Source of the DNA: Actinomycetes bacterium
GTDB taxonomy: Bacteria; Actinomycetota; Thermoleophilia; BMS3ABIN01
NCBI GenBank assembly: GCA_021790115.1
Contig: JAJYIM010000003.1
Span: forward strand, 16,602 to 80,601
Direction: 5' to 3'
Length of the DNA: 64,000 nt
The notes under the pieces are model-generated. The model made no database searches. It was given only the letters and a program-made list of their open reading frames with translations, and had not been told where the DNA came from. Shown here piece by piece: positions 16,442-46,922 of this stretch. The number at the start of each line of letters is the position of its first letter. Position 1 is the first letter of the stretch. The translations under genes and the position numbers were made by a program.

Positions 16442-16444
16442 GGC

Positions 16445-17301: not shown

Positions 17302-17319
17302 GCTATTCTCCGTAGGTCA

Positions 17320-17835: not shown

Positions 17836-17843
17836 ATGATCTC

Positions 17844-18797: not shown

Positions 18798-18871
18798 TGA
18801 TGCGCTTCCTGTTTGTCAATGCGGTCATGCCTGAACTTTCATCACATGTGACCGCCGGGTGCAGGCCCCCT

Positions 18872-21583: not shown

Positions 21584-21590
21584 TATTTGA

Positions 21591-22877: not shown

Positions 22878-22948
22878 TGGTTCAAAGTTTCAGGTTTAGG
22901 TTTTGTCCAGCATCCATAATCCAGCATCCAGCATCCGTTTACTCGTAC
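22878..22948 (+). repeat. heptamer-tandem intergenic element copy C, in the 61-nt nuoE-nuoF intercistronic gap
   Basis: GGTTCAAAGTTTCAGGTTTAGGTTTTGTCCAGC ATCCATA ATCCAGC ATCCAGC ATCCGTTTACTCG. Confidence 0.7.
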
Positions 22949-23403
22949 TTATCAAGGATCTCGCCGATTCTGTCCGGGTCGACGTTGGTGTGCAAATCTT
23001 CGTCGATCATCATTGCCGGCGCCCGGTCGCAGGCGCCCAGGCAGACAACCGGCAAAAGAGTGAAGCGGCCGTCTGCGGTTGTCCGGCCCGGGTCGACTCC
23101 GAGGCAGCCGGCAATGTGGCTCATCAACTTCTTCGAATCCATCAGCCAGCAGCTGACGCTGTCACAGGCGAGGATCACGTGCCTGCCCACAGGCCGTCTG
23201 AATATCAAGTTGTAGAAGCTGGCGGTTCCGTCCAGCTCGGCAATGGGCATCTCCAGCAGTTTGCTCAGCTCAGCGATGGCCTCGTCAGAAACCCATCCCT
23301 GGTGGCGCTGCACTATCCTGAGGGCGTCGATGGCGGCTGCCTGCCTGACCGGGTAAGGAGCCATTGCCGCTTCTATTTCCATTTTTACTTCTCTTTTTAA
23401 CAT
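22939..23403 (-). CDS. nuoE: NADH-quinone oxidoreductase subunit E (2Fe-2S)
   Basis: Thioredoxin-like 2Fe-2S motif ACDSVSC...VVCLGACDRAP. 154 aa. Confidence 0.9.
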   Translation of the reverse strand: MLKREVKMEIEAAMAPYPVRQAAAIDALRIVQRHQGWVSDEAIAELSKLLEMPIAELDGTASFYNLIFRRPVGRHVILACDSVSCWLMDSKKLMSHIAGCLGVDPGRTTADGRFTLLPVVCLGACDRAPAMMIDEDLHTNVDPDRIGEILDKYE

Positions 23404-23430
23404 TGTTAGTTTATCTTTGCTGCTTTTCGA

Positions 23431-25188
23431 TTAGCGGTCCACATCCGCCAGGACGTAATCGATGCTTCCCAGGATCGCCAGCAGGTCAGGGATCATGGCG
23501 CCGCCGCTGATAAAGGGGATCATCTGCAAGTGGGGGAAGGAGGGGGTGCGGATGCGCAGCCGGTAGGGTCCGCTGCCGCCATCGCTGATCAGATAGTAGC
23601 TGTTTATCCCTTTCGCCGCCTCAACGGCGGCGGTTGCTTCCCCGGGCGGAATAACAGGCCCCCAGCCGGCCTGAAGAAAATGGGTGATCAGGGTCTCGAT
23701 GTCAGCCAAGGTTCGCTGCTTTGGCGGCGGCGCCGCCAAGGGATGGCCAGCCTTGTATGGCCCTGGGGGCATGTTTTCCACGCACTGGCTGATGATCCTC
23801 AGGCTCTGGCTGATTTCCGCTACCCGCACTGCCGCCCGGTCATAGCAGTCGCCGGCGTCAGCGGTGGGAATGTCAAACTCGAACTGGTCATAACCGCTGT
23901 AGGGGCGCTGCTTGCGCAAATCCCATTCCAGCCCGCAGGCGCGCAGTCCGGGGCCGGTGACGCCCCACTCGACTGCTTCCTTAAGCGAGTAGGCGCCAAT
24001 GCCCTTGGTGCGGGCCTTGAAAATGCGGTTCTGCATTACGATGCGGTCATATTCCTGCAGCCGCCGGGGCAGATAAGCCAGAAAGTCACGCACTCCCGCG
24101 TCCCAGCCCCGGGGCAGGTCCTGGGCGACACCGCCGATGCGGAACCAGTTGGGGTGCATGCGGTCCCCGCAGATGGCGGCAATGATGTCAAAGAGGCGTT
24201 CGCGGTCGGTAAACATGTAAAACACCGGCGACATCGTCCCCACGTCCTGGGCAAAGGTGCCGTACCAGACCAGATGGCTGGCGATGCGGAACAGCTCCGA
24301 CAGCATCACCCTGATCACCTGCGCCCGCTCCGGGACCTCGATGCCGGCCAACTGCTCCACCGCCATCACGTACGGCAGGTTGTTCAGAACGCCGCCCAGA
24401 TAGTCAATGCGGTCAGTGTAAGGAATGTAAGTATGCCAAGTCTGCCGCTCGCCCATTTTTTCCGCGCCGCGGTGGTGATAGCCAATATCAGGAACAGCGT
24501 CAACGATCACTTCACCGTCCAGCTGCAGAACGATGCGCAACAGGCCATGCGTGCCAGGGTGCTGCGGGCCGACATTGAGGAAAAGAAAATCTGTATCACC
24601 GTGGCGCCGGCTGATGCCCCAGTCCTCAGGACGAAACTTGAGCGCCTGCTCCTCTTTCTCTTCCCTGGCTTCAGGCAGCCGGTACGGCTCCATTTCGGTG
24701 GCCCGGGCGGGATGCTCCTTCCGCAGCGGGTGGCCTTCCCAGGTGGGCGGCATCAGGATGCGGCGCAGGTGCGGATGCCCGTTAAAGACAATGCCAAACA
24801 TGTCCCAGGCTTCCCGCTCATACCAGTTGGCTGCGGGCCAGATATTGACAATGCTTTGGGCGGCGGGGCTTTCCCCCTTCAACGCAGTTTTGACGCAAAT
24901 ATCCTCAGCGCGGTCAAGGGAGAAAAGATGGTAGGCGAGCGTAAAATCACCCTCCGGCTGGTCACGGCGGTGGCTGCGCAGGCGCTCATCGATGGCGGTC
25001 AGGTTGTAAAGCATTGGGAAGGGGCTGCCGGCCTCGCTTTTTAGATACCGTAACAGCTGTGGCAATTTGTCAGCGGGCGCCCAGATAACGGGGGGGCCGC
25101 CCTGCACCTGCTGGCGGGTGAAACCCGGGCCGCCGAATTTCTGCTCGGCTGCCGCAAGTGCATCGGCGCTGCTTTCCTGGACTTTCAC
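23431..25188 (-). CDS. nuoCD: NADH-quinone oxidoreductase subunit C/D fusion
   Basis: 585 aa: N-terminal ~170 aa NuoC-like (30 kDa subunit) fused in frame to the NuoD 49-kDa domain ([16 protein letters not shown]... to C-terminal ...YVLADVDR). Confidence 0.85.
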
Positions 25189-25193
25189 CTTGC

Positions 25194-25829
25194 CTAGACC
25201 TCGCCGGGGGGCCTGAGCCTGTCGGTTTTTTGCCTCTCGGCACGCATGCGGTCGCGGCGGGCGGGAAATGGGGGGCGCACAGTATCCTGCCGGGCGGCAT
25301 GCCAGCTAAGCGGCCGCCGCTCCCGTCCGACAGCGCTGCTGAGCATCAGCAGCCCTTCCATGAAAGCATCGGGGCGGGGGGGACAACCGGGCACGTAAAC
25401 GTCGACGGGCAGAAACTTGTCAACTCCCTGGACAACGCTGTAAATGTCGTACATGCCGCCGGAGTTGGCGCACGAGCCCATTGAGATCACCCAGCGCGGC
25501 TCCATCATCTGCTCGTAGAGAAGCTTGATGATGGGCGCCATTTTCGCAAAGACGGTGCCGGCAATTACCATCAGGTCAGCCTCCCTGGGCGTTCCCCTGA
25601 TCACCTCGGCGCCAAAGCGGGCGATATCATACTTGCTGGTAATGCAGGTGGCCATCTCCACGTAGCAGCATGAAAGGCCGAAGTTAAAAGGCCAGATTGA
25701 GTTTTTGCGGCCCCAGGAGATCAGATCCTGAAGCCGGGAGAGCAAAAGCACGCGCCCAACCGTCTCTGCCGGCGAATCTGTCCAGGCCGCCATTTTGGCG
25801 CCTTCTCCGTCTCCGGCCGAAGCGATCAT
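25194..25829 (-). CDS. nuoB: NADH-quinone oxidoreductase subunit B (4Fe-4S N2)
   Basis: CCYVEMA...[10 protein letters not shown]...GCPPRP cysteine ligands. Has a ~50-aa Arg-rich C-terminal tail beyond the conserved core. Confidence 0.85.
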
Positions 25830-26266
25830 GACCTGCCTTTTTCCGGTGGTCCGGCGTTACCGCCGCCCGGCCGGAGCCCAGCACCCGGCTTTGGCCGCCG
25901 CGGTCCCCAATCAAGGGCGCCCTGCCGCCACAGATACGCCAACGCCGCGCCGAGGATGCCGATAAAGACGACAATTTCAATATATCCCTGCCAGCCGGCG
26001 GCGCGGATGGCGACAGCCCAGGAAATAATAAACATGGCCTCCAGATCAAAGATGACAAAGAAAATCGCGTTCTGATAAAACTTGACATCAAAGCGCACCC
26101 GCGCAGTACCCGTTGATATAATCCCAGATTCGTATGGTTTGCCGGTCTCTGTTTCCCGGTGCCGTTGCCCGAGGATGTAGGAAAGCGCCAGCAGCCCCCC
26201 GGTGATGAACACGGTCGCGCCAAAATAAACAGCCAGCGGCCAAAGCGGAATCCGGGCTACGTCCAT
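25826..26266 (-). CDS. nuoA: NADH-quinone oxidoreductase subunit A
   Basis: 3-TM NuoA core (…[21 protein letters not shown]…) plus a Gly/Pro-rich C-terminal tail. Start overlaps the gnd stop by 10 nt. Confidence 0.85.
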
Positions 26267-27663
26267 TGCGTGTGAAAAACCCCCTCCGCATCCACGCGCT
26301 CGTACTTATGGGCGCCGAAATAATCGCGCTGCGCCTGGATCAGATTGGCAGGCAGCCGGGCGCTGCGGTAGCCGTCAAAATACGCCAGGCAGGCCATGAA
26401 GGCCGGCGACGGAATATGCAGGCGGGCGGCGGCGCTGGCAACATCGCTCAGGGCGTCAAGCCGTTTCCGCGCTTCGCCACCGATCTCCCTGTCCAGGAGA
26501 ATATTGGGCAGGTCCGGCCGCTGCCGGTAAGCCGCGCGGATAGTTTCCAGCAGGCTGGCCCTGATGATGCAGCCGCCGCGCCAGATGCGGGCGACCGCCT
26601 CCAGGTCGAGGCCGTAACCATATGAATCCGAAGCCCTTTTCAAATGGGCCATTCCCTGGGCGTAGGCGATAATGACGGCAGCATAAAAAGCATCCCTGAG
26701 CCGGGACAGAAACTGGTCCCGGCCGCCCTCCAGGCCATGGCCGGCGCCGCCCAGCGCGCCCGCGGCGGCCAGCCGCTCGCTTTTAAAAGCAGACAGGTTG
26801 CGCATGGCAACGGCGGCGTCCATGGCCGGCGCCGGCACGCCCAGGTTCATGGCGTCCTGGGATGTCCACATTCCCGTTCCCAACTGTTTTGCTTCGTCGC
26901 GAATCATGTTGACAAGAGGGTTGCCAGTGTCATCATCAACCCTGGCGAGGATGTCAACAGTTATCTCAAGCAGGAAAGAGGCAGCCTCGCCCTGGTTCCA
27001 GTTGCCAAAAGCAGCCTGCATCTGAGCAGCGCTCAGACCCAGGCCCTGCTTCATCAGGTCGTAGGATTCGGCAATTAACTGCATCACGGCGTATTCGATG
27101 CCGTTATGGACCATCTTGACGTAGTGGCCGGCCGACCGCGGCCCTAGGTAGGTGACGCAAGGATCGCCGCCCACCCGGGCGGCGGCCGCCTCGAGGACGG
27201 ACTGCACCTGCCCGTAGGCTTTCTTGCTGCCGCCCGGCATGATGCTGGGGCCATGCCGGGCGCCGCTCTCGCCGCCGGAGACGCCGGCGCCCATGAAGTG
27301 GATGCCACTGCCGGCCAGCATCTGCTCGCGGCGGTCGGTATCCTTGAAAAAAGAGTTGCCGCAGTCGATAATCAGGTCGCCAGGCTTTAGCAGCGGCAGC
27401 AGATCGCCAATGACGGCGTCCACCGGCGGCCCTGCCGGAACCAGCATCATCACCGCCCGGGGCTGGCGCAGCGCCGAAACAAGCTCCGCCGGGCTTTGAG
27501 CCGCCAGGACCGGCCGGCCGGCGGCCTCTTCCCGCATGGCTTGCAATTGGGACTGGTCCTTGTCGTAACCTGCGACGCTGAAGCCATGGTCGGCAATGTT
27601 GAGAACCAGGTTGCGTCCCATCACTCCCAGGCCGATCATGCCGATCTCGTATTGCCCGCTCAT
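26257..27663 (-). CDS. gnd: 6-phosphogluconate dehydrogenase (decarboxylating)
   Basis: N-terminal Rossmann IGMIGLGVMGRNLVLNI, 468 aa, full-length similarity to the Gnd family. The residues aligned to the NADP 2'-phosphate-binding N-R-S/T motif are D-K-D. Confidence 0.9.
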   Translation of the reverse strand: MSGQYEIGMIGLGVMGRNLVLNIADHGFSVAGYDKDQSQLQAMREEAAGRPVLAAQSPAELVSALRQPRAVMMLVPAGPPVDAVIGDLLPLLKPGDLIIDCGNSFFKDTDRREQMLAGSGIHFMGAGVSGGESGARHGPSIMPGGSKKAYGQVQSVLEAAAARVGGDPCVTYLGPRSAGHYVKMVHNGIEYAVMQLIAESYDLMKQGLGLSAAQMQAAFGNWNQGEAASFLLEITVDILARVDDDTGNPLVNMIRDEAKQLGTGMWTSQDAMNLGVPAPAMDAAVAMRNLSAFKSERLAAAGALGGAGHGLEGGRDQFLSRLRDAFYAAVIIAYAQGMAHLKRASDSYGYGLDLEAVARIWRGGCIIRASLLETIRAAYRQRPDLPNILLDREIGGEARKRLDALSDVASAAARLHIPSPAFMACLAYFDGYRSARLPANLIQAQRDYFGAHKYERVDAEGVFHTQWT

Positions 27664-27730: not shown

Positions 27731-29473
27731 TCAAAAATCCAGCTTCACGTTTCGAACGATCTCTTCCACCCGCGCCAGCCCTTCTTTCGGGTCGCCGCCC
27801 AAATGCACCCGCATCACCTTTCTGCCATGGCGGCGCAGAGCCATGAAGTCGCCGAGCGCCTGCGCCTGCTTAAAGACGCTAAATCCGTAGGCCGCGCCGG
27901 GAATCAGGGCGTCCTCGGCGTCATCGCAGGTAAGCTGCAAAAACAGGCCGCCGGCCGGACCGCCTTTGTGAAACTGGCCCGTTGAGTGCAGGAACCTGGG
28001 GCCAAAACCCACAGTCACCGCCAGGTGCAGCCTGTCCCGGAGGGCGGCCTGCAGCCGGGCCAGAACGTGCGCAGTGGCCTTATCTTCAGCCAGATAAGCC
28101 ATCAAGGCCAGGTAGCCACCAGGCCGCCCTTCACTTAAAAAAGAACCGATAGCCTCGGCAACCGTGACAACCGGCGGCTTAAAGCTCTCGTAGTAGACGC
28201 CGAGCGGCGCCTCCACCAAAAGCGGGGTCTCCGGCGGCAGTTCTCCGGTTTTTGCCACCTGGTCCAGCAGGCGGTTGGTATTGTCCTTGCTTTCCTGAAC
28301 ATTGGGCTGATCAAACGGATTGACGCCCAAGACAATGCCGGCAACGGCGGTGGCTGCCTCCCAGCGGAAAAACTCCTGCCCCAGCTGATATGGCTCATCA
28401 ATCCTGATCGTCACAACCGGCTGGCCGGCGGCTTTTAGCTTGTCCACGGCCGCTTCCAGGGCGGGGTCACCGCCTGCCCAAAGATAAACAAACAGCCGGT
28501 CAGTGCCGTAAACACCGGGGGAGCCGACCGCCTCGCCGGCCACCGGCAGCAGGCCTCTGCCTTTTTTCCCAGTGCTTTCCGCCAGCAACTGCTCCAGCCA
28601 CATGCCCAAGGGAGCGATTGACTCTGCCGACAGAAACGTCACCTTATCCCGACCCTGAAGCGCCAGCTCGCCAAGAGCCGCCCCCAGCACCAGGCCGGGA
28701 TTTGCCTGGACCGGGACTTCCGCGGCGCAGGCGCGCTGCATGCCAAGCGCCTGCTTAAGCAACGCTTCCGTGTCCGCGCCCGCCAAGGCGGCTGGCACGA
28801 GGCCGAAGAACGACAGGGCCGAATAGCGCCCGCCAATGTCGGGAAAATTTAAGAAGACGTGGCGAAAATCCCTGCCGGCGGCCGATTGGGCCAGCGGGGA
28901 TCCAGGGTCGGTGATGGCGATAAAATTTTCTCCTGCCCGCCCGCCCTTTGCCTCTGAGACCCGCCGGAAAAAATATTCTGCAAAAGCCCGCGGCTCGGCC
29001 GTGGTGCCGGATTTGCTGGCAACGATAAAGATGGTCTCCGTCAGCGGGGCTTCCTTTTCTATCTTTAGAATAGTCGCCGAATCTGTCGTATCCAGCACCG
29101 TCAGCGGCAGCCCCTGGTTTTTCCCGGGAAGAATTTTGGCCATCACCAGCGGCGCCAGGCTGCTTCCTCCCATGCCCATGTGAACCACACGGCGAAAGCC
29201 GGCAGCCAGTACTTCCTGCCTCAGTTTTAAAAGCAAATCCTGGTTGGCCGCCATGGTTGCAGCGGCGTCAAGCCAGCCGAGGGAATCTCCAACCTGACTG
29301 TGCTCTTTGGCGTTCCCGCTCCACAGCGAGGCATCCTTGCGCCAAAGCCGCCCGCCAATATCTGCGTCTTTAAAGCCGTCCAGCCGGACCTCAACCGCCT
29401 GGCGGTACGAGCCCAGATCAAGCGTCTGCCGGCCGGCCACTTTCACAACCGCATCATTTTCTTTCTTTACCAT
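27731..29473 (-). CDS. pgi: glucose-6-phosphate isomerase
   Basis: 580 aa. C-terminal PGI signature ...VGFGPRFLHSTGQFHKGGP... and sugar-isomerase (SIS) domains. Confidence 0.75.
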   Translation of the reverse strand: MVKKENDAVVKVAGRQTLDLGSYRQAVEVRLDGFKDADIGGRLWRKDASLWSGNAKEHSQVGDSLGWLDAAATMAANQDLLLKLRQEVLAAGFRRVVHMGMGGSSLAPLVMAKILPGKNQGLPLTVLDTTDSATILKIEKEAPLTETIFIVASKSGTTAEPRAFAEYFFRRVSEAKGGRAGENFIAITDPGSPLAQSAAGRDFRHVFLNFPDIGGRYSALSFFGLVPAALAGADTEALLKQALGMQRACAAEVPVQANPGLVLGAALGELALQGRDKVTFLSAESIAPLGMWLEQLLAESTGKKGRGLLPVAGEAVGSPGVYGTDRLFVYLWAGGDPALEAAVDKLKAAGQPVVTIRIDEPYQLGQEFFRWEAATAVAGIVLGVNPFDQPNVQESKDNTNRLLDQVAKTGELPPETPLLVEAPLGVYYESFKPPVVTVAEAIGSFLSEGRPGGYLALMAYLAEDKATAHVLARLQAALRDRLHLAVTVGFGPRFLHSTGQFHKGGPAGGLFLQLTCDDAEDALIPGAAYGFSVFKQAQALGDFMALRRHGRKVMRVHLGGDPKEGLARVEEIVRNVKLDF

Positions 29474-29825
29474 GCCGGCGCTCCGGTGATGTTCGCGATG
29501 CGCCCGTCATGACTTTTTTGATAATATGTAGTGTTGTGTCATAATGTTTTTAATCAGTTTACGTACTTTGCCAAATTTAGGCAAGCGCACGGTGTGCTCA
29601 AAAAGAACACGTTGAAAAGACTTTCCCCGGCAGGCAGAAACAAAAACCTGCAGGCCGATGAGCGTAAGTTGATATCAATCCTATATTTAATATATCGCCG
29701 CCGCTCCCCGCCGTTTGCTTCCAGGTCGCCGATCCCTTCTTGCTGTGATATCTTAGAATTCACCGTAGAGTCTGTCCCGACCTCCGGAGGCTGCCCTGGT
29801 TACCACTGCTAATGCTCTTACCTGC
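29474..29825. promoter_or_regulatory. 352-bp AT-rich divergent intergenic region between pgi (-) and the CDP-alcohol phosphatidyltransferase gene (+)
   Basis: Local GC ~45% versus ~64% for the window. Several short hairpins (TTGCCAAATTTAGGCAA; GGCAGGCAG...CCTGCAGGCC). No convincing ORF. Confidence 0.4.
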
Positions 29826-30401
29826 TTGCGCATTCTTGCCATGCCGGCAATTTTCCTGCTTGTGCTGCTTTCCGGCGGAGCCAGCAACATTGCGATGGCA
29901 ATTTTTCTGGCGGCGGCCCTAACAGACTTCCTCGATGGCCGCCTGGCGCGGCTAACCGGCACCGTCACCGAGCTGGGCAAATCACTCGATCCCGTAGCTG
30001 ACCGGATTTTTGTCGGCGGCACAATTATCGCCCTGACGGTTTCCGGCAGATTGCCGGTTCCCGGCATGGCTTTAATCGCTGTCCGGGATATCTCCATGAT
30101 TGTTGGGTATAAACTGTTCAAGCGCCGCGGCGTCATCATCAGGGTATCCAGACTGGGTAAGACTTACACGGCCGTGTTGATGCTCGCGGTGACGATGGCT
30201 CTGGCCGACATCGGCCCCGGGCGCTGGCATGCGGCTGTTTTCGGGATCTGGCCCTGGCTGTTTTGGGCCGGCGTTGGCGGCTCTTTGTTAACGGGCGCCG
30301 CCTATCTGTCAAAGGCATTTAAGAGCCTGCCCCGGCGGGCTGCTCGCGACGAGGTGGCGGCAAGCTTGGGCAAACGGCAGGAGAAAAGCCGGGGCGGTTG
30401 A
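29826..30401 (+). CDS. CDP-alcohol phosphatidyltransferase family protein (candidate eukaryote-like cardiolipin synthase / PgsA-like)
   Basis: CAP motif D-x2-DG-x2-AR-x8-G-x3-D-x3-D: ALTDFLDGRLARLTGTVTELGKSLDPVADR. 191 aa, ~5 TM. Confidence 0.8.
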   Translation: MRILAMPAIFLLVLLSGGASNIAMAIFLAAALTDFLDGRLARLTGTVTELGKSLDPVADRIFVGGTIIALTVSGRLPVPGMALIAVRDISMIVGYKLFKRRGVIIRVSRLGKTYTAVLMLAVTMALADIGPGRWHAAVFGIWPWLFWAGVGGSLLTGAAYLSKAFKSLPRRAARDEVAASLGKRQEKSRGG

Positions 30402-30443
30402 TTTTCAACCCGGCGAGCCAGGCTGTCAGCCCCGGGAATTTGT

Positions 30444-30471
30444 TTTCAACTGCAAGGGGTTGCAATATAAT
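30444..30471 (+). promoter_or_regulatory. candidate sigma70-like promoter (TTTCAA-16-TATAAT) for the nucleotidyltransferase/PMM-like gene
   Basis: TTTCAA at 30444-30449 and TATAAT at 30466-30471, ~135 nt upstream of the ATG at 30606. Confidence 0.35.
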
Positions 30472-30605
30472 TAATCTCCTGAAGCCGGGCTTAAGATGGA
30501 ACCCATTGCGATAGGCTGCTTGGAGCAAGGCCGAGCGCGAAAAAGCTTTGCCGTCCTCTGTGGCAGAAATACCTATCGAGACAGGCTCACCAAGGAAAGG
30601 ATTAA

Positions 30606-33119
30606 ATGAAGGCGGTAGTGATGGCCGGGGGAGAGGGCACGAGGCTGCGGCCGCTCACCAGCAACCAGCCCAAGCCCATGGTCCCCATCGTGAATAAGCC
30701 GTGCATGGAGCACATCATCGAGTTGTTGAAGCAGCACGGCCTCAACGACATCGTTGTCACCGTTGCCTTCCTACCTCAAAGCGTGCGCGCCTATTTCGGC
30801 GACGGCACTTCTCTGGGCGTCTCCATTGCATATTCCGTGGAGGAAAGCCCCCTTGGGACAGCAGGCAGTGTCCGCAACGCCGCCGAGCACCTTGACGAGA
30901 CTTTTATCGTCATCAGCGGCGACGCCCTCACGGACTTCAATCTTGGCGAGATCATAAATTTTCATAACAGCAAGCAGTCACTGATCACGATCGCCCTGAA
31001 ATCCGTTGAGAATCCGCTTGAGTTTGGCGTTGTTATCATCGATGACGAGAACCAGATCAAACAATTCCTGGAAAAACCCAGTTGGGGCCAGGTTTTTAGC
31101 GATTATGTCAACACCGGCATTTACGTCCTTGAACCGGAGATCTTTGATTATATTCCCGAGGGCGAAAAATATGATTTCAGCCAGCAGTTTTTCCCCAAGA
31201 TGCTGGAGCGGGGCAAGCCAATGTTCGGCTACCCTTGCGACGGCTACTGGCAGGACATCGGTAACGTCAACCAGTACCTGAGGGCAAACCACGACGCGCT
31301 CGACGGCAAAGCGAAATTAAACATCCCCGGAATCAGGCTGCAGGAAAATATTTATATCGGCGAGAAGCTGAATCTTGACAGCCTTGACAACATCCGCGGC
31401 CCGGCACTGATCGGCAATTACGCCAAAATCGATCCGGAAGCGAAGATACAGCCCTATTCCATTTTTGGCAACAACGTCGTTGTCAAGGACAATGCCGAGA
31501 CAGATCATTGCGTCGTTGATTCCAATACCTATATCGGCTCAGGCGCCAAGATAAGCGGCTCCCTCATCGGCAAGAACTGTGAAATCAAGCCAAGCGCCAC
31601 CATTCATGCCAACGCCGCCATCGGCGATGAATGCAGTATTGGCGAGCACAGCATGATTGCCAGCAATGTCAAGATTTATCCCTTCAAGGTGATTGAAGCC
31701 GGCGCCCACGTCTACAGCAGCATTATCTGGGAGTGGCGGGCGCTGAGCACGCTGTTTGGCAAGGATGGCGTTTCCGGCCTGGTGAATGTTGACATCACCA
31801 CGGAGCTGGCGCTGAAGCTGGGTATGGCGTATGGAACAGCTCTTGATAAAGGCGCTCAGGTGACCTGCAGCCGGGATGAGCATCCGGCTTCCCGCATGAT
31901 CAAGCGGGCGATCATCGCGGGGCTTACTTCGACGGGGGTGGGGGTGCGGGACCTCAGGGTAACGCCGGCCGCGGTCAACCGCTTCAGCCTAAAAAGCGGC
32001 CGCGCCGCCGGCGGCATTCATGTGCGGGCGTCAGCCTGGCATCCCGAGCTAATGCAGATCCTCTTCTTCGAGCCGCCGGGAAGTCCAATCTCGCAGGCAA
32101 CCGAGCGCGAGATAGAAAAGTATTACAATCAACATAATTACCGCCGCGCATTTTACTCTGAGATTGGCCAGATTGTCTACCCGGCCCGCTCCACGGAGGA
32201 ATACATCCAGGGCCTGCTCTCCAGTTGGGACACGGACAAGATCCGCTCCCGCGGCTTTCGTTTTTTGCTCGATTACAGTTTCAGCTCCGCCTCGCTGATC
32301 GCCAGCCGCATGCTTTCCAGGCTGGGGGCAGAGATTATCGCCCTGAACGCCTTCCTGGATGAAGATAAAAGTTCAACCATATCATCACGGTATGAGGCCA
32401 GCTCTGGACGCATGCAGAAGCTGGTTCTCTCGGCTGGCGCCGACATGGGAATTACAATCGACAATGCGGCCGAGAAAATATTTCTTGTGGATGAGCATGG
32501 CGCTGAGATATCAACTGAAAAAACCCTGTTCTTGCTGCTCAGGTTGATTGCCGCTTCAGAAGGCAGGGGAAAAATTGCGGTGCCGCTAACAGTGTCACGG
32601 CTGGCCGAGGACCTGGTGGAGGGGACAGGCTGCGAAATACTGAGGACCAAAGTGTCCCAGGCGGCTTTAACCGAGGCGGCTTCCCGGCAGGACGTTATCT
32701 TTGCCGGCGCCATCGGTGGCGATTACATCTTTCCCAGGTTTCTGCCGGCGCAAGACGCGCTGATGAGCATGGGCAAGGTGCTGGAGCTGCTGGCGCTTTC
32801 AGAAAAACCGCTGTCGCAGCTGGTGGCGGATATCCCCGGCACAACCCTGCTGCATGAAACAAAAAGCTGCCCCTGGTCGCTTAAGGGCGCCGCCATGCGG
32901 GAAATTTCTGAAAGCGTTCTGGATGAAGAAAACGTGGACAGGCTGGATGGCGTCAAGGTTTTTTATGACGAGGGCTGGGTGCAGATATTGCCGTCTCCCG
33001 ATGAGCCCCTGTTTGAGATTTTTGCGGAAGGGGACACAGTCGACGATTCCCGTGAGCTGCTGGAGCGTTTTTCAGCCAAGCTCGACGAGGTGATGGCGGC
33101 GCACGAGCAGGAAGTCTAG
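30606..33119 (+). CDS. sugar-phosphate nucleotidyltransferase (GlmU/ManC-like) - left-handed beta-helix - phosphohexomutase(PGM/PMM)-like fusion protein
   Basis: N-terminus [27 protein letters not shown] (NTP-transferase G-loop), hexapeptide-repeat segment (~res 250-380), C-terminal 4-domain phosphohexomutase fold. PMM catalytic motifs look degenerate: TASHNP -> RASAWHP, DGDGDR -> DNAAEK, RPSGTEP -> LPSPDEP. Confidence 0.75.
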
Positions 33120-33141: not shown

Positions 33142-33756
33142 TTAGGACTGTTCTGCGCAGCTAGGCGCCGCCTGCTCTTCCGAGGTTCTGGCAATCACCT
33201 GTTTGCTTATACTTCTTAACGCTTCAAACACTCCTTCACCGGTAAGGGCGCAGGACTCTACCGACGGCGAGCCGGTCTGGTTAAGCAGTTCGTTCAGGTC
33301 CTGGACACGGAAGATATCGGTCAGGTCCCGCTTGTTGTACTGCATCACCAGCCCCAGATCAAGGGGGCTGTCACCCTGGTCTGCGAGATTGTCCCACATG
33401 TTGAGGTACGCTTCCACGTTGTCGTCGAGCCGGTCCAACTGGGAGTCAACCACGAAGACGATGCCGTCAACGCCCTGGATTACCAGCTTGCGGCTGGCGT
33501 TATATTGCGGCTGCCCGGGCACGGTGTACAAATGGAATCTGGTTTTCAGGCCCCGGACCTTATCCAGTGTCAGCGGCAAAAAATCAAAGTAGAGGGTTCT
33601 TTCTTCCTCCGTGGCAATGGAGACGAGCTTGCCTTTCACCTGCGGCGTGATCTTCCTGTAGACGTACTGGATACTCGTGGTTTTGCCGCCGAGGGCGCAG
33701 CCGTAATAGACAATCTTGTAATTGATCTCACCTGCTGCCAGATTAATCAGCGCCAC
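33142..33756 (-). CDS. mglA: MglA-family Ras-like small GTPase
   Basis: MALINLAAGEINYKIVYYGCALGGKTTSIQYVY...TRFHLYTVPGQPQYNASRKLVIQGVDGIVFVVDSQ...QYNKRDL. Very close in pattern to Myxococcus/Thermus MglA (P-loop, Thr switch I, PGQ switch II, NKxD). Start overlaps the upstream roadblock gene. Confidence 0.85.
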   Translation of the reverse strand: MALINLAAGEINYKIVYYGCALGGKTTSIQYVYRKITPQVKGKLVSIATEEERTLYFDFLPLTLDKVRGLKTRFHLYTVPGQPQYNASRKLVIQGVDGIVFVVDSQLDRLDDNVEAYLNMWDNLADQGDSPLDLGLVMQYNKRDLTDIFRVQDLNELLNQTGSPSVESCALTGEGVFEALRSISKQVIARTSEEQAAPSCAEQS

Positions 33757-34300
33757 GGCGTTCTCCTTGGGCGTTAAAAAGTTCGTCGATGGCCTGCCTG
33801 ATCCCTTCGGCGCAGCCCGGCTCCTCGTCCATGCTGCCGGGCTTGTCTGGCAGCATATTGAGGGCCTCGCAAAGGGAGCGGGCCGCCCTTGCGGCTAGCA
33901 GGCGCACCTTGCCTAGTTCTGTGACCCTGCCAAAGCATATCACCAGCAGAACATCCCCGGTAACCTGTTCAATATATACCTTGATTCTGCTTCCTTCCTG
34001 GAACATGACGCTAAAATCGTAGTCGTCCATCATCTGCGTCAGCTGGCGCGTTGCGGCAAATGAACCGGAAGCAAGTGAAGCCAGCGAGTCAATATCGCCC
34101 TTAAACCCCGCAGCAGAGTAATACATTATGGTCTGGCCACTGGTTGTGATCAGGCCCAGAAACTGCGCCAGCAGCTCTTCGCTCAGCTGCCGGAGAACGC
34201 GGTCGGCGGCTTCCAGCTGGGACTTTAAGACTGTTTGGTTTCTGCTCAAAAAATAGCTCCCCAAATTTCGCCTCAAGCGGCGCGGGTTTCCTTTTTGCAA
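33743..34300 (-). CDS. mglB: MglB-like roadblock/LC7-domain protein (GTPase-activating partner of MglA)
   Basis: Roadblock/LC7 fold pattern ...LGLITTSGQTIMYYSAAG...SRIKVYIEQVTGDVLLVICFG... Sits immediately upstream of mglA with a 14-nt overlap (classical mglBA order). TTG start. Confidence 0.7.
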   Translation of the reverse strand: MQKGNPRRLRRNLGSYFLSRNQTVLKSQLEAADRVLRQLSEELLAQFLGLITTSGQTIMYYSAAGFKGDIDSLASLASGSFAATRQLTQMMDDYDFSVMFQEGSRIKVYIEQVTGDVLLVICFGRVTELGKVRLLAARAARSLCEALNMLPDKPGSMDEEPGCAEGIRQAIDELFNAQGERRGAD

Positions 34301-34749: not shown

Positions 34750-34926
34750 CGCCGCTGACCGCAGCCGGTGGTTCGCAAAAAGGCGGCGGCACTATGCCGG
34801 GCTTTGAGATAGGCTCCAGGATCCATACCACTAAGAATCTGTCTCGAAAGGTTGTTCGCAGCGAGGCCGGCCGCAGCAGAATATATGCCTTTTGAGATAG
34901 ATTCTAAAGAGAAAAGGGGAGTTGCT

Positions 34927-35181
34927 GTGCCCGACCGAGTTATCCCGGCAATTGAGAGGCTTTTTAAGGACCTTGGCGTTGAAGTAGTCGAAGAAAGGGT
35001 CCTTCATTTTGTCATCCAGGAAATACATGACGGCAAAACACTGGCAGAGGCTCTGGAAGAGCCCTACGTAAAAAATAACACCACTGCCGCCTGGCGGCGC
35101 CAGGTGCTTGAGCGGCCCCAGCTGGTCAAGGCGGTCGAGGAAGAAATTCAGAAGTCATTTAAAGCGCGCGGCGGCGGGTAA
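34927..35181 (+). CDS. hypothetical small acidic protein (~84 aa from GTG; ORF open from 34852)
   Basis: AAAGGGGAG RBS 7 nt before the GTG. VPDRVIPAIERLFKDLGVEVVEERVLHFVIQEIHDGKTLAEALEE... Precedes the FHA gene by 5 nt. Confidence 0.4.
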   Translation: MPDRVIPAIERLFKDLGVEVVEERVLHFVIQEIHDGKTLAEALEEPYVKNNTTAAWRRQVLERPQLVKAVEEEIQKSFKARGGG

Positions 35182-35186
35182 GATTC

Positions 35187-35654
35187 ATGACCAGGGTCTA
35201 TTGTCAAGAATGCGGCTACCGGAACACAGCAGAGGGCAAGTACTGCAGCAAATGCGGGGCGCTGCTGCCGGAAGCAGACGCCGGCTCGGAAACGACGATC
35301 AGGTTCTCTCCCGAGGCAGATGAAGAGCCGGACACCGCCGAGGTCGGTGAAATCACCAGCGAGGGCGTTTCCCTGGTTGTCCGCAGCGGCGGCGGCATGG
35401 CCGGAGAAAGTTTTAGCCCACAGAAAGATGAAACCACTATCGGCCGCCATCCCGACAGCGATATTTTCCTCGATGACATTACCGTCTCGCGGAGGCATGC
35501 GCTGCTGATTCATAAAAGCGGCGGATACTTTATCCAGGACCGCGGCAGCCTGAACGGCACCTATGTCAACCGGGTGCGGGTCGAGACCCAGAAGCTTTCT
35601 GATGGCGACCAGCTTCAGATTGGAAAGTACAAGCTAACGTTTATCGAGCGATGA
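35187..35654 (+). CDS. zinc-ribbon + FHA-domain protein
   Basis: N-terminal CQECGYRN...CSKCG zinc ribbon. C-terminal FHA core TTIGRHPDSDIFLDDITVSRRHALL...GSLNGTYVNRVRV. 155 aa. Confidence 0.85.
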   Translation: MTRVYCQECGYRNTAEGKYCSKCGALLPEADAGSETTIRFSPEADEEPDTAEVGEITSEGVSLVVRSGGGMAGESFSPQKDETTIGRHPDSDIFLDDITVSRRHALLIHKSGGYFIQDRGSLNGTYVNRVRVETQKLSDGDQLQIGKYKLTFIER

Positions 35655-36370
35655 TCAGCCAGCAAGGCGGGAAGGGCGCGCCATCAAAACCCTTGACTAT
35701 CGGCGCTGTCGTCAATCTGCTAAAGCCCGACTTCAACAACGTTAGCATTAGCAAGATTCGCTACCTTGAAGACGAAAAACTGATATCACCCCGGCGGACG
35801 CCCGGAGGCTACCGCCTTTTTTCCAAGGCTGACATCGAGCGATTGCGCACGGTGCTCACCCTTCAACGCGATGAATTTCTGCCGCTCAAGGTTATCCGTC
35901 AGGAGCTTTCCCGGAAAGGAACGGTGGCCGTCCGGCCTGCCGGCACCCGCCGCTTTAAAAAAATCAGCCTGCAAACACCGGCTTCTGAATCCCGCTCCTA
36001 CACCCTCGATGAGGCCCTGGAAACAGCAGGAGCAGATGCCAAATTGGTCAGGGAGCTTGAGGATTATGGCCTGATTGCCGGCGTCTCGGAAGGCGGCGTC
36101 AAACACTACGATCAGACGGACGTGGAAGTAATGGCGGCTGCTTCGGATCTGGCCCGCTATGGCGTCGCTGCCAGGAATCTGCGCACACTCAAAAGCTCTG
36201 TTGACCGCGAATCTTCTTTGTTGTTACAAATACTTGCGCCGGCGCTGCACTCCCGGAATCCACAGGCGCGCAAACAGGCAATTGCGGCGCTGGAGAATTT
36301 GGCAACTGTCTCTTCCCACCTTAAGCACCTGCTGTTGATCAAAGACTTGCGGAATTTTACCTCCGGTTGA
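35651..36370 (+). CDS. MerR-family transcriptional regulator (FHA-associated, Rv1828-like)
   Basis: N-terminal MerR HTH LTIGAVVNLLKPDFNNVSISKIRYLEDEKLISPRRTPGGYRLFSKADIERL. Start overlaps the FHA gene stop. 239 aa. Confidence 0.8.
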   Translation: MISQQGGKGAPSKPLTIGAVVNLLKPDFNNVSISKIRYLEDEKLISPRRTPGGYRLFSKADIERLRTVLTLQRDEFLPLKVIRQELSRKGTVAVRPAGTRRFKKISLQTPASESRSYTLDEALETAGADAKLVRELEDYGLIAGVSEGGVKHYDQTDVEVMAAASDLARYGVAARNLRTLKSSVDRESSLLLQILAPALHSRNPQARKQAIAALENLATVSSHLKHLLLIKDLRNFTSG

Positions 36371-38323: not shown

Positions 38324-39745
38324 ATGCTGGACAAAATACAGAACTCCATACCAGGTATAAGCACCAAAGTGGCTTTGTCACGCGGCATAGTTGCTCTCAG
38401 CGGCCGGATTGGCCATGGCGGCACAACGCTTCCCGGGCGCGTCGTCCGCGTTCTGGACGGCGATATTGCCCCGCGCCTGGGACGCAAGCTGGATCAGGGA
38501 TGCGTACTCGTTTCAGCAACCAATGGTAAAACTACAACCAGCGCCATGATTGCCGCGATTTTAAAAGAAAGCGGTCTGGTTGTAGCTAGGAACCGGGAGG
38601 GAGCCAATCTGGCGGCAGGGGTGGCCACAGCACTGCTGAAGAACGCCTCTTTGGCGGGCAGGCCCACTGCCGATATCGGCCTATTTGAAGTTGACGAGGC
38701 CGTATTTCCCGCGATAGCCGGGCAGCTTGATCCCCGGGCAGTGTTGCTTATGAACCTGTTCAGGGACCAGCTCGACCGCTATGGAGAGCTTGAGCATATT
38801 GCAGACATGTGGCGGGATGCAGTAAAGAAACTGGATCAGCGCCGGACAATCGCGATCGTCAACGCTGATGATCCCCTGGTGGCGGAAATGTCGAAGCTGA
38901 AGCGGGACGCCTTCCTTTGTTTCGGTATTGAGGACTCAACCGCCGGCGGCCTTGTCATGCAGCATGCATCCGACTCAAAGTACTGCACTGTTTGCGGAAC
39001 GCCGTTCAAATATGAAGTCCTTTTCATGGGGCATCTGGGCAAATACCACTGTCCAAATTGCGGCAACCGGCGCCCCTCCCCAACCATTTTTGCCGAAAAC
39101 GTGCATTTGGACGGCATGCGCGGCTCCTCTTTTGACCTGGTTACGCCAGATTGGCGCCAGGCTGTCGCTGTTGCCCTGCCCGGCCTTTACAACGTCTATA
39201 ACGCTCTGGGCGCAGCTGCCTGCTGTTTTGGCCTGAAGGTGGCTCCAGACCAAATCAAAAACGGCCTGAAGTCTTTTGGCGCTGCCTTTGGCAGAGTTGA
39301 GCGGCTGATAATTGGCGAAAAGAAAGTCTGCCTGCTTCTTGTAAAAAATCCCGCCGGTTTTAACGAGGTCGTGCGCACCCTCCTGATCGAGCCGGGCCAA
39401 AAAAACCTGCTGCTGGCATTAAATGACAAGATTGCCGACGGACGCGACATCTCATGGATCTGGGACGTTGACCTGGAGGCGCTGGCCGGCGAGGTGCTGA
39501 GTGCCACCTGCAGCGGCACCAGGGCCGCCGAAATGGCGATGCGGCTAAAATACGCCGGCCTGAACGCAAAAACGCTTAAGGTCAGGCCAGATCTTAAAAC
39601 GGCCCTCAGGGTGGCCCTGGCCCATACAAAGGATGATGAAACACTCTACGTGCTGCCTACCTATACAGCCATGCTGGCCCTCAGGCAGACCATCCACAAG
39701 CATTTTCAGACCGAAAATGAAATGGCAGACCTGGTATGGAAGTAA
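38324..39745 (+). CDS. murT: Mur-ligase-family lipid II isoglutaminyl synthase subunit MurT
   Basis: Mur ligase ATP-binding VSATNGKTTTSAMIA. MurT-specific Cys4 ribbon YCTVCGTPF...YHCPNCG. C-terminal DUF1727-like region. 473 aa. Confidence 0.8.
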   Translation: MLDKIQNSIPGISTKVALSRGIVALSGRIGHGGTTLPGRVVRVLDGDIAPRLGRKLDQGCVLVSATNGKTTTSAMIAAILKESGLVVARNREGANLAAGVATALLKNASLAGRPTADIGLFEVDEAVFPAIAGQLDPRAVLLMNLFRDQLDRYGELEHIADMWRDAVKKLDQRRTIAIVNADDPLVAEMSKLKRDAFLCFGIEDSTAGGLVMQHASDSKYCTVCGTPFKYEVLFMGHLGKYHCPNCGNRRPSPTIFAENVHLDGMRGSSFDLVTPDWRQAVAVALPGLYNVYNALGAAACCFGLKVAPDQIKNGLKSFGAAFGRVERLIIGEKKVCLLLVKNPAGFNEVVRTLLIEPGQKNLLLALNDKIADGRDISWIWDVDLEALAGEVLSATCSGTRAAEMAMRLKYAGLNAKTLKVRPDLKTALRVALAHTKDDETLYVLPTYTAMLALRQTIHKHFQTENEMADLVWK

Positions 39746-39805
39746 ACCGGATGCTGGATGGTGGATGGTGGACAAACCCGAAACCTTAAACCCGAAACCG
39801 AAGTA
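39745..39805 (-). repeat. heptamer-tandem intergenic element copy D (reverse orientation) between murT and gatD
   Basis: Reverse complement reads CGGTTTCGGGTTTAAGGTTTCGGGTTTGTCCACC ATCCACC ATCCAGC ATCCGGTTTAC. Confidence 0.7.
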
Positions 39806-39836
39806 GCGGATCGCCGGTAAAACCAACAATAAGAGG

Positions 39837-40574
39837 ATGCAAATGGAACTAAGGATTGCCCATCTTTACCCGGAACTGATGAATATTTATGCCGATCGCG
39901 GCAACATCATTACGCTGGTCAGCCGTTGCCGCTGGCGCGGCGTCGACGTGCGCGTCGATAATTTTGGCCCCGGAGAGACACCCGCCTGGCGTGAGTATGA
40001 CTTCTTCTACCTTGGCGGCGGCCAGGACCGCGAGCAGCGCCTGGTGGCGCGCGACCTTGCCTCCAAGGGCGCCGGATTGGCCGATGCCGTTGAGCGCGGC
40101 GCAGCTCTGCTTGCAATTTGCGGCGGTTTCCAACTGCTGGGCCAATACTACCGCACGTCAGCCGGCGAGACCATGGAAGGCGTGGAACTGTTTAAAGCTT
40201 ACACCGTTGCGGGACGAAGGCGGCTGATCGGCAACGTGGTGGTGGAGTCCCGCATGGACGGCAATATCTTTGAGCTGGCCGGGTTCGAGAACCACTCCGG
40301 GAAAACCTATCTGACTGAGGAAGGCCAGCCGCTGGGCCGGGTTGTTGCCGGCTTCGGCAACAATGCCGAAGACAAAACCGAGGGAATAATATACCGGAGC
40401 GCCATCGGCACCTATTTGCACGGGCCCCTGCTTCCCAAGAACCCGGAGCTGGCCGATTTCCTCCTGCAGCGCTCGCTCCGGCGCCGCTACGGGGCCGAAG
40501 CTGTTCTTGCGTCTTTGGAAGACGGCCTGGAGCGCGAGGCTCACTCAGTGGCGATCAAACGGGCCGGGCGCTAA
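39837..40574 (+). CDS. gatD: glutamine amidotransferase GatD (CobB/CobQ-like GATase partner of MurT)
   Basis: ...YADRGNIITLVSRCRWRG...LLAICGGFQLLGQYY... (catalytic Cys in ICGGFQ). Adjacent to murT. 245 aa. Confidence 0.8.
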   Translation: MQMELRIAHLYPELMNIYADRGNIITLVSRCRWRGVDVRVDNFGPGETPAWREYDFFYLGGGQDREQRLVARDLASKGAGLADAVERGAALLAICGGFQLLGQYYRTSAGETMEGVELFKAYTVAGRRRLIGNVVVESRMDGNIFELAGFENHSGKTYLTEEGQPLGRVVAGFGNNAEDKTEGIIYRSAIGTYLHGPLLPKNPELADFLLQRSLRRRYGAEAVLASLEDGLEREAHSVAIKRAGR

Positions 40575-43665: not shown

Positions 43666-43830
43666 AATGAGACTAGTTCCGAGTTCCGAAAGATTATAAC
43701 GATTGTTTTCTATTTATCAAGTGAATTTCTGGTTTTAGGTTTTTATCCAGCGTCCATGATCCAGGATCCACCATCCGGGTTTTTGTGTTTATCCACCATC
43801 CACCATCCAATGTCCGGTTTACGGATTTAG
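43666..43830 (+). repeat. heptamer-tandem intergenic element copy E (tandemly duplicated core) between rseP and ispG
   Basis: AGTTCCGAGTTCCGAAAG...GGTTTTAGGTTTTTATCCAGC GTCCATG ATCCAGG ATCCACC ATCCGGGTTTTTGTGTTTATCCACC ATCCACC ATCCAAT GTCCGGTTTACGG. Two heptamer arrays in tandem. Confidence 0.75.
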
Positions 43831-44883: not shown

Positions 44884-44896
44884 CATGACCGCCAGC

Positions 44897-46042: not shown

Positions 46043-46047
46043 AATCT

Positions 46048-46127
46048 CTGCCCGAGTTTAAAGTTCCAAGTTTAGGGTTGGTTAAATCCATCATCCAGGA
46101 TCCAGGATCCACCATCCGGTTTCACGT
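46048..46127 (+). repeat. heptamer-tandem intergenic element copy F between cdsA and dxr
   Basis: GAGTTTAAAGTTCCAAGTTTAGGGTTGGTTAA ATCCATC ATCCAGG ATCCAGG ATCCACC ATCCGGTTTCACG. Confidence 0.75.
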
Positions 46128-46916: not shown

Positions 46917-46922
46917 GGCCGC

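Follow-up and report, generated by a model that had tools for sequence, protein, structure and literature searches.

A conserved gene pair of Actinomycetota: a transferase at the ClsA position and a predicted sugar pyrophosphorylase fused to a degenerate phosphohexomutase domain

What might a phosphohexomutase fold do once the loops that define it have changed, and why should the gene that carries it lie directly behind a phosphatidyltransferase gene? The question is raised by two adjacent genes in a 64,000-nucleotide stretch of DNA, referred to here as the window, from a Thermoleophilia assembly (Actinomycetes bacterium, contig JAJYIM010000003.1). A first-pass annotation, made from the letters of the window, had placed here a CDP-alcohol phosphatidyltransferase of 191 amino acids (aa) and an 837-aa fusion protein, and the open reading frames (ORFs) and Pfam bear out both. 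The fusion ORF (30606-33119, + strand) comprises an NTP-transferase domain, a left-handed beta-helix and a four-domain phosphohexomutase fold. The mutase half of this protein appears to be a pseudoenzyme domain that is maintained by selection throughout a very large family. The parts of the fusion gene that the argument needs are as follows.

30606..31310, + strand: NTP-transferase catalytic domain, aa 1-235 (Pfam PF00483, 199 bits, aa 2-232)
31338..31700, + strand: left-handed beta-helix (LbH), aa 245-365 (Pfam LbH_EIF2B and Hexapep, 247-352; short strand ladder in the AlphaFold2 (AF2) model)
31752..33095, + strand: alpha-D-phosphohexomutase fold, four domains, aa 383-830 (Pfam, phmmer to the active archaeal phosphoglucomutase/phosphomannomutases (PGM/PMMs) 9du5 and 1wqa, Foldseek)
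32025..32045, + strand: former phosphoserine loop RASAWHP (canonical T-A-S-H-N-P), aa 474-480 (this and the other former loops by alignment to 9du5/1wqa)
32460..32477, + strand: former metal-binding loop DNAAEK (canonical D-G-D-x-D-R), aa 619-624
32706..32723, + strand: former sugar-binding loop GAIGGD (canonical G-E-E-N-G-G or GExSG), aa 701-706
32868..32900, + strand: family-specific motif C-P-W-x2-K-G-x2-M-R in domain IV, aa 755-765 (conservation in 136 representatives)
32988..33008, + strand: former phosphate-binding loop LPSPDEP (canonical R-x-S-G-T-E-P), aa 795-801

The mutase fold of the window protein is complete. Pfam recognizes PGM_PMM_I (aa 383-511), PGM_PMM_II (531-632) and PGM_PMM_III (639-743), and no match to PGM_PMM_IV is found in the 837-aa protein. 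The sequence alignment to 9du5 and 1wqa (HMMER/phmmer, E ~1e-60) extends to about residue 830, and the AF2 model superposes on 9du5 (Foldseek; target-normalised TM 0.89, rmsd 3.0 Å, about 454 columns, 29% identity); it is for these two reasons that all four domains are taken to be present. Going from the active enzymes to the window protein, GVRG becomes GVSG, TASHNPPE becomes RASAWHPE, DGDADR becomes DNAAEK, GEENGG becomes GAIGGD, and RASGTEP becomes LPSPDEP. These readings come from an HMMER alignment with high posterior in the loops, and three of them (RASAWHP, DNAAEK, LPSPDEP) agree with those of the first-pass annotation. Its further claim, that the catalytic residues are lost, holds for the His and Asn after the serine (now Ala and Trp), two of the three metal Asp and the Arg and Thr of the phosphate loop, to which the N-terminal Arg and the sugar-loop Glu can be added. 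It does not hold for S476, the aligned Ser, or D619, the first metal Asp; the third Asp is replaced by Glu (E623). Since S476 and D619 are kept, the loops are degenerate and not wholly erased. Curated mutase equivalog models score far under their cutoffs (Arch_GlmM 273 against 439, glmM 143 against 448, PMM/PGM 103 against 618 bits).

The degeneracy had been taken as a feature of this one gene; it is present here, and it proves to be a property of the whole family. Of 1.84 billion cluster representatives searched for homologs, 5,236 are found at E <= 1e-30, and the best 150 of these 5,236 are nearly all full-length fusions (790-860 aa, 33-55% identity). Motifs were surveyed in about 255 full-length relatives from several phyla (33-93% identity), and every catalytic position was tabulated over 136 representatives with the two active archaeal sequences added. 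The complete set of mutase motifs is present in none of the 255 full-length members. Only a metagenomic protein of 830 aa (P0129) has the canonical metal loop DGDADR; it also has a near-canonical sugar loop, GGENGG, and is without the phosphoserine and phosphate loops. To judge from these motifs, P0129 may be a transitional form between mutase and pseudo-mutase.

Across the representatives, the Arg of GVRG is replaced by Thr, Ser, Ala or Val. The phosphoserine position is occupied by Ser in 56 of 136 (41%) and by Ala in 17 of 119 close relatives, and the His that should follow it is Pro, Ser or Ala. The first metal Asp is found in 73/136 and the second in 21/136, and Glu replaces the third in 96/136. 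Depending on which position is counted, 34-57 of the 136 have lost the sugar loop, roughly one quarter to two-fifths of them. In the phosphate loop, Arg has become Leu in 78 (Arg is kept in 8), Ser has become Asp in 101, and Thr has become Glu or Asp in 81, so that the family-wide consensus, L-P-D-x-(D/E)-E-P, is acidic. Because conserved catalysis needs conserved catalytic residues, and none of them is conserved in the family, mutase catalysis does not appear to be conserved either. The mutase half is thus predicted to be a pseudoenzyme domain family-wide, with phosphoryl transfer lost, and the label 'guanylyltransferase/phosphomannomutase' is very probably wrong.

Despite its degeneracy, the mutase domain appears to be under strong purifying selection and hence functional. 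In a pairwise comparison with the Thermoleophilia ortholog at locus L001, the nonsynonymous difference (pN) is 0.12-0.17 in PGM domains I-IV, 0.105 in the NTP-transferase domain and 0.063 in the LbH, the lowest of all domains, and the synonymous difference (pS) is about 0.7, with synonymous sites saturated. Since pN is low and pS is saturated, dN/dS is roughly <= 0.1 throughout. The same values, together with thousands of homologs, indicate that the genes are real. The mutase domain is also kept at full length across phyla.

Selection has left its own pattern in this domain. The residues that the family shares with real mutases are mostly structural. The motif C755-P-W-x2-K760-G761-x2-M-R765 is conserved at 82, 65, 65, 78, 91, 76 and 93% of the 136 representatives, position by position, and the active 1wqa and 9du5 read V-E-G..H/K-A..V-N/A at these positions. 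Other family residues foreign to real mutases are R459 (88%), P660 (94%) and P796 (93%), and R430 is a further family-specific conserved basic residue. That the family-specific residues are mostly basic or structural suggests a new surface or site.

The N-terminal half has its motifs intact in the window protein (the G-loop including K23, D106, LEKPSWG and WQDIG), and it is followed by a beta-helix such as occurs in GMPPB, CugP and GlgC-type pyrophosphorylases. The first-pass annotation had described an intact NTP-transferase N-terminus and a beta-helix, and the wider comparison agrees: the G-loop (M/L)AGGxG(T/S)RLRPL and the motif (L/V)EKPxW(G/S) hardly vary when the 255 full-length members are aligned with MAFFT, and the G-loop, K23, D106, EKP and D217 are invariant in an alignment of 39 sequences (33-82% identity). 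Because all catalytic motifs are intact, this half is predicted to be an active nucleotidylyltransferase. Its best PDB match is the UTP-glucose-1-phosphate uridylyltransferase tlr0611 (8x7s, 254 bits); GMPPB/VTC1 structures follow at about 145 bits, and the alignment to 8x7s, 7whr and 7d72 extends through the LbH. No PDB chain that spans both halves of the 837-aa protein was found.

The curated NCBIfam models are likewise matched at a distance, and no cutoff is reached for either half of the fusion protein. The model man1P_GTase_Rv (Rv3264c-type ManC) gives 255 bits against a cutoff of 440, rmlA_long 186 against 320, and glgC 127 against 425. The strong matches of the N-terminal domain are all UDP-, GDP-, dTDP- or ADP-sugar pyrophosphorylases; among CDP-sugar models there is a match to G1P_cyt_trans alone, and a weak one (108 against 300). 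We infer that the N-terminal half is a sugar-1-phosphate nucleotidylyltransferase of the CugP/ManC/GMPPB type, with UDP- or GDP-hexose as the predicted product. The database names, 'sugar phosphate nucleotidyltransferase' at NCBI and the domain-derived 'mannose-1-phosphate guanylyltransferase/phosphomannomutase' at JGI, are generic, which matches the lack of any curated cutoff reached.

The second part of the question concerns the neighbouring gene. A pattern scan with one genome per species gave at least 597 confirmed relatives of the fusion gene, and synteny was surveyed at the best 80 of these, all of them in Actinomycetota (Thermoleophilia/Gaiellaceae, Acidimicrobiia, and Actinomycetes such as Nonomuraea, Actinomadura, Glycomyces and Nocardiopsis). 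Immediately ahead of the fusion gene, and on its strand, 72 of the 80 loci have a gene for a CDP-alcohol transferase, across Thermoleophilia, Acidimicrobiia and Actinomycetes, which agrees with the earlier remark that such a transferase is typically paired with a large ManC-like gene; the pair is syntenic well beyond this genome. In 39 of the 72 loci the stop and start codons overlap (25 ATGA, 14 GTGA, verified), and the remaining intergenic gaps are 4-236 nt. Eight loci are exceptions: in three the contig breaks off within 560 nt of the gene, in one the gap is 904 nt, in two there is no transferase within 6 kb, and in two a single ORF contains both transferase and fusion. The window locus is thus an ordinary member, in its Thermoleophilia version, of a pair that is conserved across Actinomycetota and is also present in model streptomycetes. 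The family-wide degeneracy, the family's own motif and the strength of the linkage to ClsA do not appear in the searchable literature, and in this sense they are new.

The fusion family extends further than the pair. The closest relatives (78-93% identity) come from metagenome-assembled genomes (MAGs) of Thermoleophilia, and exact-sequence look-up places more distant members in Parathermosynechococcus (Cyanobacteria), Deltaproteobacteria, Calditrichota, Fimbriimonas (Armatimonadota) and a Thermoprotei MAG. No CAP transferase is found near the fusion in any of four lineages outside Actinomycetota (Cyanobacteria, Armatimonadota and two others); two of the four have polysaccharide or sugar-modification neighbours, namely Poly_export, a GFO oxidoreductase, a hexapeptide transferase and DegT aminotransferases. 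To our knowledge, mycobacteria keep pgsA2 without the fusion gene. Since the fusion stands alone in other phyla and mycobacteria keep pgsA2 alone, the coupling is obligate for neither gene.

The pair itself belongs, it seems, to a larger and ancient synteny block. An FHA protein gene is conserved downstream in 68 of the 80 loci and a MerR regulator gene in 65. At locus L087 (8234-10909) the order is fusion, GCV_H, FHA, Rv1828_C, BFN_dom, which recalls, and presumably matches, the M. tuberculosis order gcvH-garA-Rv1828-Rv1829. In the window, 35187-36370 (+) holds the genes for a zinc-ribbon and FHA protein (GarA/OdhI-like) and for a MerR regulator. Between these genes and the fusion gene lies a pair on the opposite strand (33142-34300, -) that encodes a 204-aa small GTPase of the Ras/Arf type, similar to MglA, and a 185-aa MglB/Roadblock-LC7 protein (55 bits with the NCBIfam MglB model, under its cutoff). 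Since this pair is found in only six of the 80 loci (L001-L005 and L025), it looks like a clade-specific insertion into the conserved block. A 109-aa ORF without a Pfam match (34852-35181, +) lies between MglB and FHA, and its homologs are detected only in L001 and L025.

The transferase gene and the spacer behind it are laid out as follows.

29826..30401, + strand: CDP-alcohol phosphatidyltransferase (CAP family), 191 aa (Pfam PF01066, 98.9 bits; CAP motif; synteny; ClsA score gradient)
30402..30605, + strand: 204-nt spacer with a promoter-like site and Shine-Dalgarno-like AAGGAAAGGA ahead of the ATG (consensus scan)

The CAP motif is complete in the 191-aa translation (D34-x2-D-G-x2-A-R-x8-G-x3-D-x3-D59). 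Tested against NCBIfam, the transferase scores 83 bits with the ClsA model NF053678 (cutoff 240) and 83.2 bits with the PgsA model TIGR00560 (cutoff 109.1); with the N-terminal extension described below the values are 89.6 and 91.5. Genes in the same position in Nonomuraea, Actinomadura and Nocardiopsis pass the ClsA cutoff (254-266 bits), and the score falls in deeper lineages to 160 bits in Acidimicrobiia, 107 in Gaiellaceae and 86 at L001. Because it stands where ClsA does, immediately ahead of the fusion gene, and lies on this score gradient, the window transferase is best described as a positional ortholog of actinobacterial ClsA, with synthesis of cardiolipin or of phosphatidylglycerol phosphate as its candidate reaction. 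The first-pass view of it as an actinobacterial cardiolipin synthase type therefore stands by position and not by its own score. For the S. coelicolor counterpart, Sco1389, the summary in PMC4966929 describes the first demonstrated cardiolipin synthase that depends on CDP-diacylglycerol (CDP-DAG), which serves as the phosphatidyl donor. A gene for CdsA (CDP-diacylglycerol synthase) lies at 46128-46916; therefore the enzyme that produces the donor for CAP transferases is encoded 13 kb from the pair. A tblastn search of the window found no second CAP transferase, no second NTP-transferase and no canonical mutase.

The start of the transferase gene deserves comment. The longest canonical ORF opens at TTG 29826. 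Orthologs have an ATG start upstream of a conserved N-terminal element, '(T)AANALTxLRIL', and in the window (29766-29841) such an element, TTANALTCLRIL, lies in frame downstream of the stop TAG 29766-29768. There is no ATG, GTG or TTG in this frame between that stop and TTG 29826. Since a GGAGG (29786-29790) stands 5 nt ahead of the in-frame CTG 29796, the CTG is probably the real start and would yield a protein of roughly 201 aa. P0271 (186 aa), as called in the database, begins at ATG 29841 and would miss the N-terminal element.

The spacer is absent in most Actinomycetota, where the (A/G)TGA overlap is found instead. Its promoter-like site is TTTTCA-17-TATAAT at 30443-30471, as seen by consensus scan only. 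A hidden RNA element in the spacer or upstream region was considered and ruled out: there is no Rfam match at E <= 1, no conservation against L001, L002 and L004, and the fold z is -1.26.

Three ORFs of 1021-1058 aa join a CDP-alcohol transferase, an NTP-transferase and the pseudo-PGM in one reading frame.

L078, 5311-8487: three-module ORF of Aquihabitans daechungensis
L033, 5449-8514: three-module ORF, long-read MAG
L087, 5001-8165: three-module ORF (P0506), long-read MAG

In L033 and P0506, Gly/Arg/Pro-rich sequence, apparently read out of frame, stands where the transferase C-terminus should be, and both ORFs are probably frameshift artefacts; they are not accepted as true fusions. The L078 protein (1058 aa, from a complete chromosome) has a complete transferase domain followed by a linker of about 25-30 aa; its close relatives are all about 828 aa. 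Either a true fusion or an indel error would account for it. Three-module ORFs are therefore not used as Rosetta-stone evidence, save for this cautious mention of L078.

Taken together, the explanation that we regard as best, and as moderately probable, is an Actinomycetota operon in which a transferase at the ClsA position is followed by an NDP-hexose pyrophosphorylase that carries a pseudo-mutase in cis. The first gene encodes a CAP phosphatidyltransferase, whose ClsA counterpart makes cardiolipin from CDP-diacylglycerol and phosphatidylglycerol. The N-terminal half of the second gene product is the predicted pyrophosphorylase, which would yield UDP- or GDP-hexose, and its C-terminal half is a complete phosphohexomutase fold that is predicted to have lost phosphoryl transfer. 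We infer for this dead domain a structural or regulatory role within the pyrophosphorylase, by way of assembly, control of activity or docking of a partner. In Actinomycetota, co-transcription and frequent translational coupling would mean that lipid-headgroup chemistry and NDP-sugar supply are produced together.

Several points weigh against this explanation. The window transferase lies below both curated cutoffs, ClsA and PgsA. The specificity of the N-terminal domain is ambiguous, since it matches a UDP-glucose enzyme at 254 bits and the Rv3264c-type ManC model at 255 bits (below cutoff). The AF2 model is of moderate confidence, with undefined inter-domain geometry (pLDDT 79, pTM 0.54). S476, D619 and E623 survive, and sequence alone leaves room for residual or altered phosphotransfer chemistry in the window protein. 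The coupling of the two genes may be looser in the window's clade, because 204 nt containing a promoter-like site separate them. Finally, neither a biochemical study of any family member nor any mention of a degenerate mutase domain was found in the searchable literature.

The alternative that survives best, though we think it unlikely, is that the dead mutase cleft is an allosteric sensor, which binds a hexose phosphate, a bisphosphate or an NDP-sugar and tunes the N-terminal enzyme, as GMPPA senses GDP-mannose for GMPPB. The strong purifying selection on the mutase domain speaks for a sensor, the family-specific residues R459, K760, R765 and R430 are basic and could bind an anionic ligand, and GMPP-type enzymes offer a precedent for pseudoenzyme sensors (7d72). 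The ancestral binding determinants, however, are not conserved and the phosphate loop is acidic, so any ligand site would have to be new; moreover, the GMPPA pattern is the opposite one, in which ligand-binding residues are kept and only catalysis is lost. For the same reasons (an acidic phosphate loop, a sugar loop deleted in many representatives and the missing N-terminal Arg) the first-pass proposal that the dead domain serves in sugar-phosphate binding is doubtful. A structural or regulatory role is favoured over sensing at the old site because the catalytic and ancestral binding loops are lost and R459, K760 and R765 are conserved.

A small chance, in our estimate, attaches to a more specific possibility, that the dead mutase is a docking or sensing module whose basic residues R459, K760 and R765 bind either the ClsA-type transferase or the anionic membrane made by ClsA. 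Synthesis of NDP-sugar would then be sited where cardiolipin and anionic lipid are synthesized, in a complex that couples lipid and glycan in Actinomycetota, and the translational coupling and the possible three-module fusion of Aquihabitans would be its genomic footprint.

Also improbable is a two-step headgroup pathway, in which the nucleotidyltransferase activates an alcohol or sugar and the CAP transferase attaches it to a lipid, after the manner of IPCT/DIPPS or LicC/CPT-type Kennedy pathways. An NTP-transferase beside a CDP-alcohol transferase follows the known logic of IPCT/DIPPS; adjacency is tight and translationally coupled within the 72 of 80 Actinomycetota loci that have the pair, one apparently complete three-module ORF exists (L078), and the window transferase reaches neither the ClsA nor the PgsA cutoff, so that it may have other substrates. 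Yet the N-terminal domain is homologous over its full length, LbH included, to UDP-glucose and GDP-mannose pyrophosphorylases, and there is no cytidylyltransferase or IPCT model among the best 25 of 59 NCBIfam matches. A soluble nucleotide-activated donor is not needed, because Sco1389 uses CDP-DAG for cardiolipin (as summarised in PMC4966929) and the same-position transferases of Actinomycetes pass the ClsA equivalog. Frameshifts seem to have produced two of the three 'triple fusions', and disruption of sco1388 caused no change in one reported readout (PMC5982138). The first-pass idea of a two-gene unit for a nucleotide-activated headgroup is in consequence weakly supported, as the fusion is without a CAP partner in all four lineages examined outside Actinomycetota.

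Least of all do we credit a genuine bifunctional ManC/ManB (the JGI/KEGG annotation, assumed for SCO1388), in which a mutase active with non-canonical residues feeds the N-terminal pyrophosphorylase: the complete PGM fold at 29% identity to an active archaeal PGM/PMM, the retained Ser476, Asp619 and Glu623, the metabolic sense of fusing consecutive steps and the name 'mannose-1-phosphate guanylyltransferase/phosphomannomutase' given by the source speak for it, but all canonical functional loops are altered in the window protein, the altered positions are unconserved family-wide (Ser in 41%, sugar loop often deleted, phosphate loop acidic), and the PGM/GlmM equivalog models are all far below cutoff (for example 273 against 439).

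The operon with a pseudo-mutase in cis, if it is the correct explanation, has consequences beyond this locus. Thousands of genes, in Actinomycetota, Cyanobacteria and further phyla, bear the label 'mannose-1-phosphate guanylyltransferase/phosphomannomutase' and enter metabolic reconstructions as a two-step enzyme; if the mutase half is a pseudoenzyme, then such annotations and models are wrong, including the published reading of the S. coelicolor member. A large family would be added to the pseudoenzyme domains that are under strong selection, and it would be one fused in cis to the class of GMPP-like pyrophosphorylases, for which eukaryotes use pseudoenzyme regulators in trans. How the supply of membrane lipid and of envelope-glycan precursors might be coordinated could be approached through the tight, often translationally coupled linkage to the actinobacterial cardiolipin synthase.

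Upstream of the pair in the window, 27731-29473 (-) encodes a glucose-6-phosphate isomerase, which matches the 'bifunctional transaldolase/PGI' model at positions 371-946 only (662 bits, cutoff 712); since the match is limited to the C-terminal (PGI) part of that model, the isomerase is without a transaldolase half. Beside it lies 6-phosphogluconate dehydrogenase (26257-27663, -), whose start abuts nuoA (25826-26266), part of a complete nuo operon (about 13000-26266). Further downstream are MurT/GatD (38324-40574; peptidoglycan amidation) and IspG, RseP, Dxr, CdsA and UppS (42595-47666; envelope and lipid housekeeping).

Among known systems, the nearest is SCO1389 (ClsA)-SCO1388 of Streptomyces coelicolor, which has the same two-gene arrangement by gene numbering and, for SCO1388, the same reported architecture. 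The window transferase is far more divergent (ClsA 83-90 bits against the cutoff of 240), and a 204-nt spacer takes the place of an overlap. SCO1388 is described as one of three ManC candidates, with nucleotidyltransferase and phosphomannomutase-like domains (Howlett et al. 2018, PMC5982138). In that study the single mutant sco1388::Tn5062 stayed sensitive to phage phiC31, its only reported readout, and double mutants gained no phenotype from the disruption; SCO1388 is also among the genes that affected actinorhodin in a transposon screen (PMC6585502). In print it is read as a bifunctional ManC/ManB; here the mutase half is predicted to be dead family-wide. Two other candidates were set aside: CipG (PMC13506006) is a pentapeptide-repeat protein unrelated to the fusion family, and Synechocystis sll1496, which appears in mutation lists as 'mannose-1-phosphate guanyltransferase', is unconfirmed as a cyanobacterial member and is not used.

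The two halves of the fusion protein compare differently with their relatives. CugP/tlr0611-type enzymes (8x7s), ManC (Rv3264c), GMPPB and VTC1 align end to end with its N-terminal 340-370 aa and share its G-loop, EKP motif and C-terminal LbH. They end after the LbH, whereas the fusion protein adds about 460 residues of PGM fold. The archaeal PGM/PMMs of Thermococcus kodakarensis (9du5) and Pyrococcus horikoshii (1wqa; NCBIfam TIGR03990) have the same four-domain fold and have many structural residues in common with the fusion, for example a GRD-like SRD, the D of D-x-x-G in domain II, D717, DG782 and W791. Unlike them, the fusion has four degenerate signature loops and a lost N-terminal Arg, a fused pyrophosphorylase and a CPW-KG-MR motif of its own.

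Bifunctional IPCT/DIPPS proteins combine a CTP:inositol-1-P cytidylyltransferase with a CDP-alcohol transferase, and the window pair likewise comprises an NTP-transferase-fold enzyme and a CDP-alcohol phosphotransferase. IPCT/DIPPS has for its nucleotidyltransferase a short cytidylyltransferase, with neither LbH nor PGM fold, and its transferase works on a soluble CDP-alcohol; among the NCBIfam matches there is no sequence evidence that would put either window gene in these families. The concept, finally, is closest to GMPPA/KONJAC (VTC1-KJC2) and GlmM-CdaA, in which an inactive or moonlighting homolog regulates another enzyme by protein contacts, and the structural neighbours found by Foldseek include these complexes (7d72, 8yre and 7olh, for GMPPA/GMPPB, VTC1-KJC2 and GlmM-CdaA). 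GlmM, unlike the predicted dead half of the fusion, has kept its mutase activity. GMPPA and KONJAC are dead pyrophosphorylase copies that act in trans, whereas the predicted dead module of the fusion is a mutase fold in cis.

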